Assembly: GCF_055900595.2 (NCBI RefSeq)
Contig: NZ_CM148325.1
Strand: one strand, 5' to 3'
DNA: 64,000 nt
Shown: positions 57,001 to 63,000 of the stretch, piece by piece
Position numbering within the stretch: the first letter of the stretch is position 1
Layout: each line of letters opens with the position of its first letter
Made by a program: the position numbers

Positions 57001-60000
57001 GCGATGACCGTTCGGGTTATCACAGAGTGCCTGAGACAGTGTCCTGCCGGAGGTCACCTCAGGGGCTCTGCGCATTTTTTACGACGTGGTTATTCCGTAT
57101 GAACCATACGGAGATTTAACCATGACCTACAAATACAACCCCTTCTGGCAGCAACGTATTCGTGAGACGGTGCGGCACGCACTGAATGTTCATTCCCGCC
57201 TGACGGCATTGCGGGTTGACCTGCGTTTCCCGGATGTACCGGCAGCAACGGACGCAGCTGTGATATCCCGCTTCATCAATGCCCTGAAAGCCCGAATCGA
57301 CGCTTACCAGAAACGTAAGCATCGGGAAGGTAAACGCGTGCATCCCACAACCCTGCATTACGTCTGGGCCCGGGAGTTTGGGGAGTGCAAAGGTAAAAAA
57401 CACTATCACCTGATGCTGCTGGTCAACCGGGATACCTGGTGTCGTGCCGGCGATTACCGCGCTCCGGGATCACTGGCCGGGATGATTAAACAGGCGTGGT
57501 GCAGTGCCCTGGGAGTGGATGCCGGACGTTATGACACGCTGGCACATTTTCCGGTCAGGCCGGCGGTGTGGCTGGAACGCGATGATGACACCGGCTTTCA
57601 GCAGGTGCTGGAGCGTGCTGACTATCTGGCGAAGGAGAGTACCAAAGCTTACGGCACCGGTGAGCGCAACTTTGGCTGCAGTCGTGGCTGAGCCCGACAG
57701 ACGACTTATCTGACCTTAGTGTGATGACGTGTTCACAGCGACCACACTGATTTTCCCTTCTGAGACTGAACTGAAAACCGCCATTCACACCTGACCACGC
57801 TGCCCGTACCGGGACGGCTGTTGCCTGTGTGTCGTCTGGCGCAGAGGAACATATACTATGTACGCAAAATCTTTTCTCGCACTTGATGGCAACGGACGTC
57901 TGACCGGTGCCCGTACCGCACAAACTGCTCCTTATGCCCACTACACCTGCCACCTTTGCGGCAGTGCACTCAGATACCACCCGCAATACGACACCGAACG
58001 GCCCTGGTTTGAACACACTGACGACGGGCTGACGGAGCACGCGCAGCAATGTCCTTATGTCAGGCCGGAACGCAGAGAAATACGGTTGATTAAACGTCTG
58101 CAGCAATTCGTCCCGGATGCCTTACCCGTGGTACGTAAAGCCAGCTGGTACTGCAGGCAATGTCACCACGATTATTATGGGGAGCAGTACTGCACACACT
58201 GCCAGACCGGGCGTTTCAGTGAGGAGGGGGTAGCAGAATGAACGGTATAAAAACGGGGCTGGGGATCACGCCGGGTGAGCACATTATCAGTGCCGACTCT
58301 GCGCTCAGCAGAAATATCCGGCATTGTTTCTGCCTTTCCTGTCATGGCCGGTTGATTCTGCAGACAGATGCTCAGGGGGCGTGGTTTGAGCATGATTTAC
58401 ATGCCCTGAGTGAGCAACAGAAGGGTAAGCGTGCAGCAAAAACCGTATTGACGGGGATGTGTTATTCAGTCGGCAGTGCTACGCGCCAGGGGAGCAGTTC
58501 GCCGACCCGGTTTATCGGCCAGTCGGCTATGACGTCAAGGACATAGCGGAGGTAGCTTTCTGGCTCCACTCCGTTCAGTTTGCACGTCCCGATCAGGCTG
58601 TACAGCAGCGCTCCCCGCTCTCCTCCATGATCCGAACCGAAGAACAGGTAGTTTTTGCGGCCCAGACTGACCATCCGCAACGCATTTTCAGCGATGTTAT
58701 TGTCCGCCTCAGCCCAGCCATCATCTGCATAGTACGTCAGCGCCGGCCACTGGTTCAGGGCGTATGCGAACGCTTTCGCCAGTTCTGAGTGTCGCGACAG
58801 GGTTTTCATCTTTTCACGCAGCCAGCTTTCCAGGGATTTCAGCAGCGGTTTCGTTTTCAACTGACGTTCGGCAAGGCGCTGCTCCGCCGTCATTCCCCTT
58901 ATCTCTGCCTCGATGGCGTACAGTTCGCCGATCCGTTTCAGCGCTTCCTCCGTCAGGGCTGACGGGGTGCGAACGTGCACATCGTGGATTTTACGGCGGG
59001 CGTGAGCCCAACAGGCGGCTTCCGTTATCCGGCCATCCCGGTACAGCTCGTTGAACCCGGCGTATGCATCCGCCTGCAGTACACCACTGAACCCCGCAAG
59101 ATGGGTCTGCGGATGGATGCCTTTTCTGTCCGGGCTGTAAGCGAACCACACCGCCGGCGCCAGCGTTGACCCGGCGTTACGGTCGTCACGAACGCAGGTC
59201 CATAACCGCCCGGTCTTCGTTTTCTTATTGCCTGGCAACAGCACCGGGACAGGCGTGTCATCAGCATGGAGCTTACCGTCAGTCAGCACATAGCCATGAA
59301 GCGCCTCTTCCAGCGGAGACAGCTGCCGGCAGCATGCATCCACCCAGCCCGACAGCAGTGAACGGCTCAGCTCCACACCTTGCCGGCCGTATATTTCTGA
59401 CTGGCGATACAGCGGGGTGTGCTCTGCATACTTCGAGGTCAGCACGCGGGCCAGCAGCCCCGGTCCGGCGATACCCCGCTCGATGGGCCGCGAAGGTGCA
59501 GGTGCCTGCACGATGGCATCGCACTGAGTACAGGCATGTTTTTCCCGTACCGTCCGGATAACCCGGAAGGCGCTACGCATCAACTCCAGCTGTTCGGCGA
59601 TATCCTCGCCCAGATAGCTCAGTGAACCGCCGCAGTTCGGGCAGCACGGCGCCGCAGGCAACAGTCGCTTTTCGTCACGGGGTAGTGATTCAGGGAACGG
59701 CTTACGGGTGCGGGTCTGACGCAACGGACGCTGTACTGCCGGGTCATACACCCTACCAGTCAGCGTATCGCTCTCTTTCTGAAGCCGGTTCAGATCGGCT
59801 TCCATTTGTGCGATACGGCGGGAGACTTTTTCGGAACGACTGCCGAAGTTCATCCGGCGGAGTTTATCCAGCTGCGCCTGCAGATGGTCTATTTCGCGCT
59901 CCCGGTTGCTCAGCTTTTCCTGCAGGGCGTGGATCAGCGCTTCCTGTTCGGCCAGGCGCTGTTTCAGCAGGAAAATGTCGTCAGAAGAGATGTCGTTCAT

Positions 60001-63000
60001 ACATCGTGTATTTTTCGCCGGGCATGGACCCAGCACGCAACTTCTGTCTGTGCACCACCTTCACGTTTGGCACTGAACAGCCGATCGTAACCGCTGAATG
60101 CATCCGCCTGCAGGATACCCCGGAAGGGACGAAGGTGTTGTACCGGATGTTTTCCCTGCCTGTCTGGTGAGTAGGCGAACCAGACCGCCGGTGGCTCTGA
60201 TGAGCCCGCATTCCGGTCATCCCGGACATACGTCCAGATGCGTCCTGTTTTTGCCTTTTTTCTGCCCGGTGTCAGCACTTTTACCGGTGTGTCGTCAGTG
60301 TGAACCTTGCGGGTGTTCATCACGTAACGGTACAGGGCATCATTTAGCGGAGTCATTAACTGGCAGCACGCGTCAACCCAGTTGGAGATTAATGCACGGC
60401 TCAGTTCGGCACCCTGTCGGGCAAAGATTTCACTCTGACGATACAGTGGCAGGTGTTCGCAGTATTTTCCCGTTAACACGCGGGCAAGTAATCCGGAGCC
60501 CGCGATGCCGCGCGCTATCGGGCGGGACGGCGCTGGCGCTTCAACTATACAGTCACATTTTGTACAGGCTTTTTTTACCCGAACAGTGCGGATCACTTTC
60601 AGGGCGCTACTCACCAGTTCCAGCTGCTCAGCACTGACTTCACCCAGATAATCCAGCTCACTGCCACACTCCGGGCAACAACTTTCTTCAGGCTCCAGGC
60701 GGTGTATTTCACGGGGAAGATGTGCTGGTAACGGACGACGATGACGTGACTGTCGCAACTGGCGGGGAACCTGCGGGTCATCCTCACGCCCACTGTAACG
60801 ATCGCTTTCCTGTTCGCGTTGTTTCAGTTGGGCCTCAGCCTGTTCAACCTCACGCTGCAGTTTTTCAGAACGGGTACCGAACAGCATCCGGCGCAGTTTT
60901 TCTATCTGGGCCCTCAGATATTCTATTTCCCGCTCCTCCTCTTCGATCTTTTCTTCGGCACGTGCCAGTGCAGAGCGCAGGAAGGCCTCCGTCTCTTCAA
61001 CCAGACTCAGTTGCAGATCTCTCTGACGGAGGGCTTCAGCCTGCTCAGAGAGCAGCCTTTCCAGCTCAGTGATACGAATGAGGTATTTCCGACTCATGAC
61101 CGTTTTTATAATCCGGCCATGACATTTTTACAACATTGTCAGTGCGTTAAGACGGGATGTTTTTGGCTGACGCCAGTCCAGCTTATCGAGGAGCATTGCC
61201 AGCTGCGAGCGGGTAATGGATACCTTACCGTCACGCACCGCAGGCCAGATAAACAGGCCTTCCTCCAGGCGTTTGGTGAACAGGCACAGACCATCAGCAT
61301 CAGCCCAGAGGATTTTAATCATGTCACTCCGTCGGCCACGGAAGATGAACAGGTGACCGGAGAAGGGGTTCTCATCCAGCACATGTTGTACCTGTTCACC
61401 CAGACCGTTGAAGGATTTACGCATATCAGTAACGCCGGCAACCAGCGAGATTCGAGTGTCTGATGGGAGCGAGATCATCGCCCCCTCCCGGTCAGTTCAC
61501 GGATCAACACCGTGAGCAGCTCTGGTGAAGGATTTTCCAGCGTCATGTTACCGTGGCGGAACTCAACTTTACAGGAACTGGCACTGACTGTGCTTTGTGA
61601 AGGAGTGGATAAAAGCGGAGTAAGAGCCGCCATAGGCTCTTTCTGCTCATCAGGCGTTATCTCAACAGGTAATAATTCAACGCCAGCGTCAGAAGAGGTT
61701 GTTACCGGAAGACGCCGCGATATACGCCCTTCGTTCTGCCAGAGCCTGAGCCATTTGAACAGGAGGTTATCATTGATATCGTGTTCCCTGGCAATACGGG
61801 CAACAGAGGCTCCTAGTTGTGAAGCCAGTTTAACCATTTGAAGTTTAAACTCATTTGAAAATGTTCTGCGGGGTTCTGCGGATAATATTTTCTGTTCCAT
61901 AACAGGTGTCCACTAGTTGATGAAAAGGTGGGCACCTACGTTACCAATACTGGCTTAATGGCTACATACGGCGGTCAGTTTACGCTTACCATGTATCTGG
62001 CGAGTGAAGCTTTATGTCGTGTTCTGGCGTGTCCTGTGTTAGTTAGAACACGCCATCGATGGTCAGCAGGTTCATATTGCACCAGAGCGGATACAGCGTG
62101 GTGTTATGTCAGGGCTGCGCTGTTTACGTGAACACGTGGCGTACGGCCCCGCTTCCTGGCCCTGCTGGGCATGGATCACGGCGCGACAAAGGGGCGACTA
62201 CCTGGCAGCATGTGTCCAGCCGGTTCACAATCTGGTGAAGGTTCCTTACGCTCATGGGCCATACTGATAATTCACCAGGCCATCATTTCCAGAGGAAGAC
62301 GCCGTTTGCGTAGCGTGACAGTGTCGGACTCTTCAGGGCTGTGGGTAATCAGTTCCGGGGCAAGATAGTCGCAGAGGGTTACGCAGAGAATAGTAACTGG
62401 ACACTGGATCGATCAACCGATCCTTAACTGAGCGGCATGACAGCTTTCTGATGGTTTTTTTTTGATAATCTTCACATTGTGCTTCTTTTCTGTTGGATAA
62501 TCTTTGTACTTGATGGTGTACTAGGTATCCCATTATGCAGTTAAGTGAAGGTGATTAAAAATGCAATGTGAATTTAAAGGGGTCATATCAGCATTACCCA
62601 CTCCTTATGACCAATCCCAGCAAATCGATATGGAGAGTCTTCGAAAACTGATCCGTTTTAATATCGAACAAAATATTAAGGGATTGTATGTTGGAGGCTC
62701 TACTGGAGAAGCATTTCTTCAGAATGTTGCAGAGCGAGAAAAAATTCTTGAAACAGTAGCCGATGAATCAGATGGAAGACTGACACTTATAGCGCATGTG
62801 GGCGGAATCAGTACGGCAGAAAGCGAGGTACTTGCAAAAGCTGCAAAAAAATACGGATATCATGCTATATCTGCTGTTACTCCATTTTATTATCCTTTTT
62901 CATTTGAAGAGCATTGTATTCATTACAGGAAGATTATTGATTCTGCAGATGGACTTCCGATGGTAGTTTATAATATACCGGCTCTTAGCGGAGTGCGTTT

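Follow-up and report, generated by a model that had tools for sequence, protein, structure and literature searches.

A chimera of two IS66-family elements in the pheV island of E. coli and its probable origin by deletion

Structure of the locus

The window analysed is a 64-kb stretch of DNA (64,000 nucleotides of contig NZ_CM148325.1, assembly GCF_055900595.2). Between positions 61989 and 58425 on its minus strand lie 3,565 bp made up of two joined IS66-family elements, all the features of which are on that strand (the right repeat is listed below as it reads on the plus strand). The first part, 1,991 bp long, is the left portion of an IS682-like element, in which the left terminal repeat is followed by tnpA, tnpB and a tnpC that breaks off after codon 366 (tnpC'). 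The second part, of 1,577 bp, is the right portion of an element of the ISEc8/ISEc22 group, with a complete tnpC of 512 aa and the right terminal repeat. The features of the locus are as follows.

61990-62443, minus strand: left flank, N-terminal remnant of a decayed IS4-family transposase, adjacent to the left end of the IS682-like element (conceptual translation matches Pfam Nterm_IS4, E=2e-9)
61960-61989, minus strand: left terminal inverted repeat, IS682-like, GTAAGCGTAAACTGACCGCCGTATGTAGCC, outer end 61989; homology to full-length IS682 copies begins exactly there, and the IS66 end motif matches
61475-61900, minus strand: tnpA, 141 aa, IS682-type accessory protein (Pfam HTH_Tnp_1, E=9e-14; NCBIfam IS66 TnpA; annotated as tnpA in ABU 83972)
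61128-61478, minus strand: tnpB, 116 aa, IS66-type accessory protein, overlapping tnpA by ATGA (Pfam TnpB_IS66, E=8e-35; NCBIfam IS66_TnpB)
59997-61097, minus strand: tnpC' of the IS682-like element, 366 aa, ending in HARRKIHDV; cut after codon 366 of 537, with the C-terminal 171 aa missing
59999-60001, minus strand: junction, a 3-bp microhomology (TAT) common to both parents, which creates an ATGA stop/start overlap
58462-60000, minus strand: complete tnpC, 512 aa, ISEc8/ISEc22 group, with full DDE_Tnp_IS66 and C-terminal element
58425-58454, plus strand: right terminal inverted repeat, ISEc8-like, GTAAGCGTGCAGCAAAAACCGTATTGACGG (plus-strand sequence), outer end 58425; homology to complete copies ends exactly there
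58238-58424, plus strand: 5' part of a DUF7828 zinc-ribbon gene, interrupted by the ISEc8-like insertion (Pfam DUF7828 over profile positions 2-62 of 87 only)

The motif of an IS66-type end (GTAAGCG-N11-CCGT) is found exactly twice in the window, at 58425 (plus strand) and 61989 (minus strand), and the two ends face each other. The initial annotation had placed the element at 58425-61980; its start is exact, whilst the outer left end lies at 61989. The 8 bp immediately outside the two outer repeats had been described as unmatched, and they are indeed unlike (GATACATG vs CCTTCTGT). ORF calls agree with the earlier statement that the first tnpC stops after 366 aa, directly behind HARRKIHDV. The reported overlap of the two tnpC genes is seen when the sequence at 60000-59997 is read directly, the TGA of tnpC' (59999-59997) overlapping the ATG of the second gene (60000-59998). 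A mechanical ORF for the second tnpC opens earlier than this ATG, at GTG 60036. A promoter and terminator scan found nothing above shuffled expectation.

In RefSeq, tnpC' (59997-61097) is annotated as a pseudogene without its C-terminus and is followed by an intact tnpC; the structure is thus already known at annotation level. RefSeq does not annotate a known single element here, an alternative which had been raised at the outset. The IS4 remnant is annotated as frameshifted, with an internal stop and a missing C-terminus, and the DUF7828 gene as a pseudogene that likewise lacks its C-terminus.

The two parental elements

The usual ISfinder line for isoforms is 95% nucleotide identity. The left half lies above it, with 97.2% nucleotide identity to copies named IS682 in RefSeq/PGAP annotation over 1,991 bp (61989-59999). 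As in IS682, the genes are in the order tnpA, tnpB, tnpC, with Pfam and NCBIfam matches for all three, tnpA and tnpB overlap by ATGA, and the left terminal repeat is common to both. Within tnpC', 354 of 366 residues (97%) are identical to residues 1-366 of IS682 TnpC, and the match to the Pfam domain DDE_Tnp_IS66 covers profile positions 1-163 of 284 only (E=1e-54). Unlike IS682, the left half is without the last ~545 bp, which encode TnpC residues 367-537 and carry the right terminal repeat. Complete IS682 copies have both repeats and an 8-bp target duplication (TCTTTCTC), in keeping with the two GTAAGCG ends and 8-bp duplication of IS66 elements. The left half, by contrast, has a sole repeat, at 61989; since its right repeat has been deleted, it is without an 8-bp duplication of its own.

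The right half is 99.4-99.6% identical at the nucleotide level to unnamed full-length copies (99.4% over 60014-58425), whose TnpA and TnpB are identical to their ISEc8 counterparts. It carries a complete DDE domain (DDE_Tnp_IS66 1-283 of 284 plus DDE_Tnp_IS66_C, E=1e-105 in Pfam) and a terminal repeat that ends at 58425. Its TnpC is identical to that of a plasmid copy at 509 of 512 residues and shares 94% amino acid identity with ISEc8 TnpC. Nucleotide identity is about 91.4-91.8% to copies annotated ISEc8 and about 94% to those annotated ISEc22. Thus, although the complete 512-aa TnpC and the right terminal repeat are those of the ISEc8/ISEc22 group, the right half falls under the isoform line. 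As the initial annotation had it, the second tnpC is without its own tnpA and tnpB: neither these nor a left repeat belonging to it is found in the window, the left 865 bp of the parent being gone, although all three parts are present in plasmid copies and in a copy in E. coli UPEC 26-1. Complete ISEc8 copies have an 8-bp target duplication (CGTTCAGT).

Members of the IS66 family of the ISBst12 type reportedly consist of tnpC only, bounded by two terminal repeats of their own. The second tnpC was considered as such an element and rejected: there is no repeat upstream of it, and homology to the three-gene parents starts 1 nt ahead of the ATG.

Between the two tnpC genes there are stretches of 73-78% identity. 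Because their products are 63% identical over 319 aa, the elements are distinct and not duplicated, and the first reading of the locus, as two different IS66 members joined head-to-tail, holds.

Insertion sites, breakpoint and proposed origin

The surroundings of the two halves bear on how they came together. At the right end, the ISEc8-like element adjoins the zinc-ribbon gene. Empty sites in other strains start exactly at 58424, and the zinc-ribbon gene is uninterrupted there; an intact DUF7828 gene of 137 aa is present in STEC379. In UPEC 26-1 this very site, with an identical flank, is occupied by the second element in its full length of 2,442 bp (99.2% over 2,237 bp); the element was therefore complete here at first, and its left 865 bp were lost later. 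To the left of the complete copy UPEC 26-1 is rearranged, with an inverted ISEc8 fragment and no target duplication. A 19-nt extension in partial matches from this strain was rejected as zinc-ribbon sequence, being a chance resemblance to the inverted ISEc8 tnpC fragment.

IS elements often insert into each other, and the UPEC 26-1 copy adjoins another ISEc8 fragment. The chimera might then have arisen by insertion of an ISEc8-like element into the tnpC of IS682, trimmed by later deletions. However, the ISEc8-like right end borders a gene that is uninterrupted in other strains and not IS682 sequence, and within the 64-kb window there is no ISEc8-like left end, no IS682-like 3' remainder and no further IS66 end. 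The zinc-ribbon flank, the empty sites and the orthologous copy in UPEC 26-1 together refute nested insertion, which we regard as very unlikely.

The breakpoint itself can be placed closely. IS682 homology extends through CACGATGTAT and ISEc8-like homology begins at TATGAACGAC, so that the parents overlap by 3 bp (TAT, 60001-59999). A breakpoint 13 nt further upstream, as given by a megablast match to ISEc8, was rejected, that alignment being a gapped extension through a patch of similarity. This patch, an imperfect similarity of about 25 bp (GCCCGG..AAAATAC), lies just upstream of the breakpoints. Measured against random position pairs, it ranks within the top 0.25-0.4% for windows of 20-28 nt and at about 2.5% for 32 nt; the statistic is modest. 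In the ISEc8-like element a 9-bp hairpin that ends at the tnpC start codon folds at -17 kcal/mol. The patch and the hairpin together probably placed the breakpoint.

The join is out of register, linking codon 366 in the first tnpC with codon 1 in the second. Given the similarity of the two genes and the 63% identity of their products, RecA-dependent recombination between homologous tnpC genes might be thought of. Such an exchange in register would, however, yield a single hybrid tnpC and not two tandem genes, and the parents are exactly identical over no more than 3 bp at the crossover; we consider this route highly improbable. The initial annotation had allowed for two routes, one element inserting into the other or the two recombining. 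Insertion is contradicted by the zinc-ribbon flank. Recombination stands, but as an illegitimate event, because the join is out of register with 3 bp of identity.

Very probably, then, the scar arose when two independent insertions in the pheV island were joined by an out-of-register deletion mediated by microhomology. In an ancestor among extraintestinal E. coli, two IS66-family elements would have inserted independently and in the same orientation into this genomic island, the IS682-like element landing next to the IS4 remnant and the ISEc8/ISEc22-group element inside the DUF7828 zinc-ribbon gene. A later illegitimate deletion would have taken four segments: ~545 bp at the end of the IS682-like element, everything that lay between the two elements, the portion of the zinc-ribbon gene that encodes its C-terminus and, from the ISEc8-like element, the first 865 bp with the left repeat, tnpA and tnpB. 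The first tnpC would have been fused at codon 366 to the base directly before the second start codon, where TAT is common to both parents. The product would be an immobile scar, vertically inherited since. The event may have been either a simple intrachromosomal deletion or an unequal exchange between two copies of the island.

That complete parents have 8-bp duplications and the chimera does not is counted in favour of a deletion origin. The C-terminal part of the zinc-ribbon gene was not found within the 64-kb window. Against such an origin, a synthetic sequence that joins the C-terminal part of the zinc-ribbon gene to the ISEc8 left repeat, as predicted for the ancestral left junction, matched none of 5,426 genomes (its partial matches include UPEC 26-1), and the full pre-deletion arrangement was seen in no sampled genome. 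The rearranged left side of the complete copy in UPEC 26-1 likewise counts against it. In an IS66 structure on Agrobacterium pAt15955, unmatched 8-bp flanks were likewise read as the sign of a deletion between two separately inserted copies (PMC6778807). There, identical copies recombined in register and one normal element was left, whereas here the elements are diverged, and their out-of-register join at 3 bp left a truncated tnpC with a complete one behind it.

Distribution and meaning

With a junction-specific query, the junction was found with unchanged flanks in 658 of 5,426 complete E. coli genomes (about 12%); the left boundary was found in 672 and the right in 639. Junction identity was 99.7-100% among the five full-length matches listed, and the 3,851-bp region as a whole gave a 100% match in the best records. 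ABU 83972 and ST131 strains are among the matches. Among 72,556 plasmids the junction occurs once, in a 22-kb record whose left flank is the same as that of the chromosome. A count of 1,033 genomes at a coverage of at least 80% was rejected as the frequency of the chimera, as about 375 of them are of the O157/O121 type and not chimeric; in these, a partial IS682-like copy adjoins one of ISEc8 in reversed order, and the two were merged into one place. No description of the junction was found in the literature. A paper on ST131 that names IS682 deals with GI-pheU, another island than pheV.

Repeated IS copies commonly cause mis-assembly, and an assembly error at the junction had been named at the outset as a possible refutation; two IS66 copies would then have been collapsed or wrongly joined. 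The junction is nevertheless present in all 658 of these independently finished genomes, from many laboratories, and an artefact is extremely unlikely. Together with the constant flanks and the one plasmid record, this speaks against an assembly artefact, and the chimera is not demonstrably a mobile hybrid.

Mobility of the whole would mean that the IS682 left end, tnpA and tnpB move with the ISEc8-type TnpC and right end as one 3.6-kb unit. Three genes, tnpA, tnpB and the second tnpC, have intact reading frames, GTAAGCGT and CCGTAT are common to both ends, and the ATGA overlap could couple translation. However, target duplication is absent, the boundary and junction counts of 639 to 672 genomes fit a single fixed locus, and the junction is found in only one plasmid though 3,867 carry one or other parent. 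Furthermore, the inner parts of the ends differ, the IS682 and ISEc8 left ends matching at 16 of 30 positions, and the second TnpC has Y269C within the conserved GRLWxYVRDD motif. An active hybrid or composite IS would occupy several loci, each with a target duplication; one locus per genome was found. A functional hybrid therefore has very little probability. It is equally improbable that the IS682 promoter, tnpA and tnpB drive the ISEc8-type TnpC via reinitiation at ATGA, with TnpC acting in trans on ISEc8/ISEc22-group copies or occasionally moving the 3.6-kb unit through the mismatched IS682/ISEc8 ends. Expression of the intact second tnpC by such reinitiation from the IS682 promoter is in itself possible.

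Beyond annotation the locus has little significance, being an ordinary decayed IS scar that extraintestinal E. coli lineages carry in their pheV island. IS-typing tools may call both IS682 and an ISEc8/ISEc22-like element here, neither of which is complete. The locus provides a tidy case of an out-of-register, microhomology-type deletion that ends at the foot of a hairpin, and its 3-bp junction is a clean marker, probably of single origin, of this pheV island lineage.

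Two IS66-family elements on one strand

All features of the chimera lie on the minus strand, running from 61989 to 58425.

Features of the chimeric element (genes assigned with Pfam and NCBIfam)
61989 (outer end), minus: IS66-type terminal repeat, IS682-like (GTAAGCGTAAACTG...)
61900-61475, minus: tnpA, 141 aa
61478-61128, minus: tnpB, 116 aa, with an ATGA overlap with tnpA
61097-59997, minus: tnpC', 366 codons, terminating in ...HARRKIHDV
60000-58462, minus: second tnpC, 512 codons, its ATG overlapping the TGA of tnpC'
58425 (outer end), minus: second IS66-type terminal repeat (...GCACGCTTAC)

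A motif search of the 64-kb window found exactly two IS66 ends, an inward-facing pair at 58425 and 61989; the initial annotation had placed the first correctly but set the second at 61980. Its description of tnpC' as ending after 366 codons (...HARRKIHDV), with a TGA/ATG overlap with the second tnpC, is borne out by the coordinates. On the IS66 DDE profile (284 positions; Pfam/NCBIfam) the tnpC' product spans positions 1-163 only, and the second TnpC spans 1-283 and carries the IS66 C-terminal element. At the protein level the tnpC' product and the second TnpC share 63% identity; homologous stretches of their genes, offset by ~1,030 nt, are 73-78% identical. The halves therefore derive from two different elements, as first proposed, and not from a simple duplication.

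The left half (61989-59999) is 97.2% identical over 1,991 bp to copies which RefSeq names IS682, and 354/366 residues of the tnpC' product match residues 1-366 of the 537-aa IS682 TnpC. The right half is 99.4-99.6% identical to IS66-family copies without an element name from E. coli plasmids, which encode the same TnpA and TnpB proteins as ISEc8. It shares ~92% nucleotide and 94% amino acid identity with ISEc8-annotated copies and ~94% nucleotide identity with ISEc22. On the strength of these comparisons with annotated copies, it is named here as an ISEc8/ISEc22-group element.

The junction

Full-length copies, two IS682-like and three ISEc8-like, were aligned with the window to map the junction. 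IS682 homology ends at ...CACGATGTAT and ISEc8-like homology begins at TATGAACGAC, so that the parental overlap is 3 bp, TAT, at 60001-59999. The IS682-like part lacks ~545 bp at its right end, and the ISEc8-like part lacks its first 865 bp, comprising left repeat, tnpA, tnpB and spacer. Codon 366 of tnpC' is joined to codon 1 of the second tnpC, which rules out in-register homologous recombination.

The sequences upstream of the breakpoints are alike over 20-28 nt (GCCCGGCGAAAAATAC... versus GCCCGGTAAAATAC...), a similarity reached by 0.25-0.4% of random position pairs (~2.5% with a 32-nt window). A 9-bp hairpin (ATAAGCCCG / CGGGCTTAT, -17 kcal/mol) ends in the tnpC start codon, and the ISEc8-like breakpoint lies at its 3' foot. 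Similarity and hairpin make the breakpoint position less of a coincidence, and we infer that they probably guided the break.

At 60011 (minus), a codon within ...KIHDV reads ATA in the IS682-like part and ATC in both IS682 references, lengthening the local match with the ISEc8-like spacer to 7 nt (AAAATAC); this could be chance, or the trace of a patchy junction. The hairpin (-17 kcal/mol as RNA) is conserved in ISEc8-group elements, as at 6845-6889 of the E. coli UPEC 26-1 locus (L010), and the same sequence lies directly upstream of tnpC in the ISEc8-group loci L003 and L004. No obvious Shine-Dalgarno sequence accompanies it at these three loci, and it may control translation of ISEc8-group tnpC.

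Flanks, distribution and history

An 8-bp target duplication has been described for IS66 (PMC6778807), and complete copies of both parents carry it: an ISEc8 in strain FORC_028 is flanked by CGTTCAGT and an IS682 on an EDL933 plasmid by TCTTTCTC. The chimera is flanked by GATACATG and CCTTCTGT, confirming the earlier observation that its outer repeats lack a matching duplication; mismatched flanks have been used to infer deletion between two IS66 copies (PMC6778807).

The ISEc8-like right end lies within a DUF7828 zinc-ribbon gene, the second of a tandem pair, and interrupts it; together with the YagK/YfjJ (inovirus Gp2-like) gene that precedes them, the pair occupies 57086-58546 (plus). The interrupted gene is intact in STEC379 and many other strains, homology to the window starting exactly at 58424; its missing C-terminal part is absent throughout the window. 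Adjoining the IS682-like left end is a decayed N-terminal remnant of an IS4-family transposase (61990-62443, minus; Nterm_IS4, E=2e-9) without its C-terminal part, with a sialic-acid gene cluster on its other side.

UPEC 26-1 carries a complete 2,442-bp ISEc8-like element that shares an identical right end and flank with the window; the match is 99.2% over 2,237 bp. The second element therefore once stood complete at this zinc-ribbon site, and its left part was lost afterwards. This excludes the insertion of the second element into IS682. Of the mechanisms initially considered, insertion of one element into the other thus falls away, and joining between elements is narrowed to a microhomology-type deletion, out of register, between IS66-family elements that had inserted separately, a reading which the evidence supports. 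In the most economical history, the two elements would have inserted independently in the same orientation, and one illegitimate deletion would then have joined them. The predicted ancestral left junction occurs in 0/5,426 complete E. coli genomes, and the full ancestral state was seen in no genome.

In UPEC 26-1 itself (L010 5612-8463) the left side is rearranged and holds an inverted 3' fragment (~410 bp) of another ISEc8 copy, which has its own right repeat and adjoins papX. The complete copy there is likewise mismatched in its flanks (TTTCCAGG versus CCTTCTGT), so this same hotspot was rearranged separately in that lineage.

Among the 5,426 complete E. coli genomes, 301 bp spanning the junction are present in 658, the left flank with the IS682 end in 672, and the ISEc8-like end with the right flank in 639. 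These near-equal counts fit a single fixed locus, vertically inherited with occasional later damage, such as an IS21 insertion in strain TUM2830; recurrence of the junction in 658 complete genomes certainly rules out an assembly artefact. A first coverage count of 1,033 genomes was too high, a hit-merging artefact of O157-type genomes with an unrelated ISEc8/IS682-like neighbourhood. The IS66 pile-up that O157:H7 genomes have near pitB/gss (for example 4617-8741 of L006, strain N8B7-2) is a different one, comprising ISEc8 without tnpA and then an IS682-like element with truncated tnpA and frameshifted tnpC. One or other parent occurs in 3,867 of 72,556 plasmids. There is no sign of chimera movement, since the junction is found in only one of these plasmids, a 22-kb record that also carries the chromosomal left flank.

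Coding potential and island context

The tnpC' product lacks the C-terminal 171 aa, its DDE-domain match ending at profile position 163 of 284. The absent part presumably includes the catalytic glutamate region (NNxAEN), and we would for this reason expect the product to be inactive. The second tnpC has an intact reading frame and might be expressed by putative reinitiation at the ATGA overlap; a promoter scan was uninformative. Compared with the copies in UPEC 26-1 and on plasmids, the product of the second tnpC carries the window-specific changes T134I (59601) and Y269C (59196), the latter in GRLWxYVRDD, a conserved motif of IS682 and ISEc8 TnpC. According to Han et al. 2001, IS66-family transposition reportedly requires tnpA, tnpB and tnpC.

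Across the pheV island, the kps capsule and the gsp region, the window is colinear with strain ABU 83972; it differs in the capsule-specific block (14843-27605), which is wholly different and has no match to K5 kfi genes. A 1.4-kb stretch at 45657-47071, absent from ABU 83972, keeps intact an 840-aa ORF (44527-47049, minus) that is N-terminally truncated in that strain. The tRNA-Phe anchor beside yqgA was seen in a related strain, and the YagK/YfjJ-zinc-ribbon module is kept beside pheV-type islands in many E. coli. The island also brings a second N-acetylneuraminate lyase (DHDPS family, E=4e-94), at 62561-63478 (plus) and past the window end, where GC falls to ~38% compared with ~57% in the IS region; in ABU 83972 the lyase heads a cluster with ManNAc kinase, MFS transporter, hydrolase, KdgM-type porin and Neu5Ac epimerase. 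Within this island the chimera is an ordinary scar, for which RefSeq annotation is already present.
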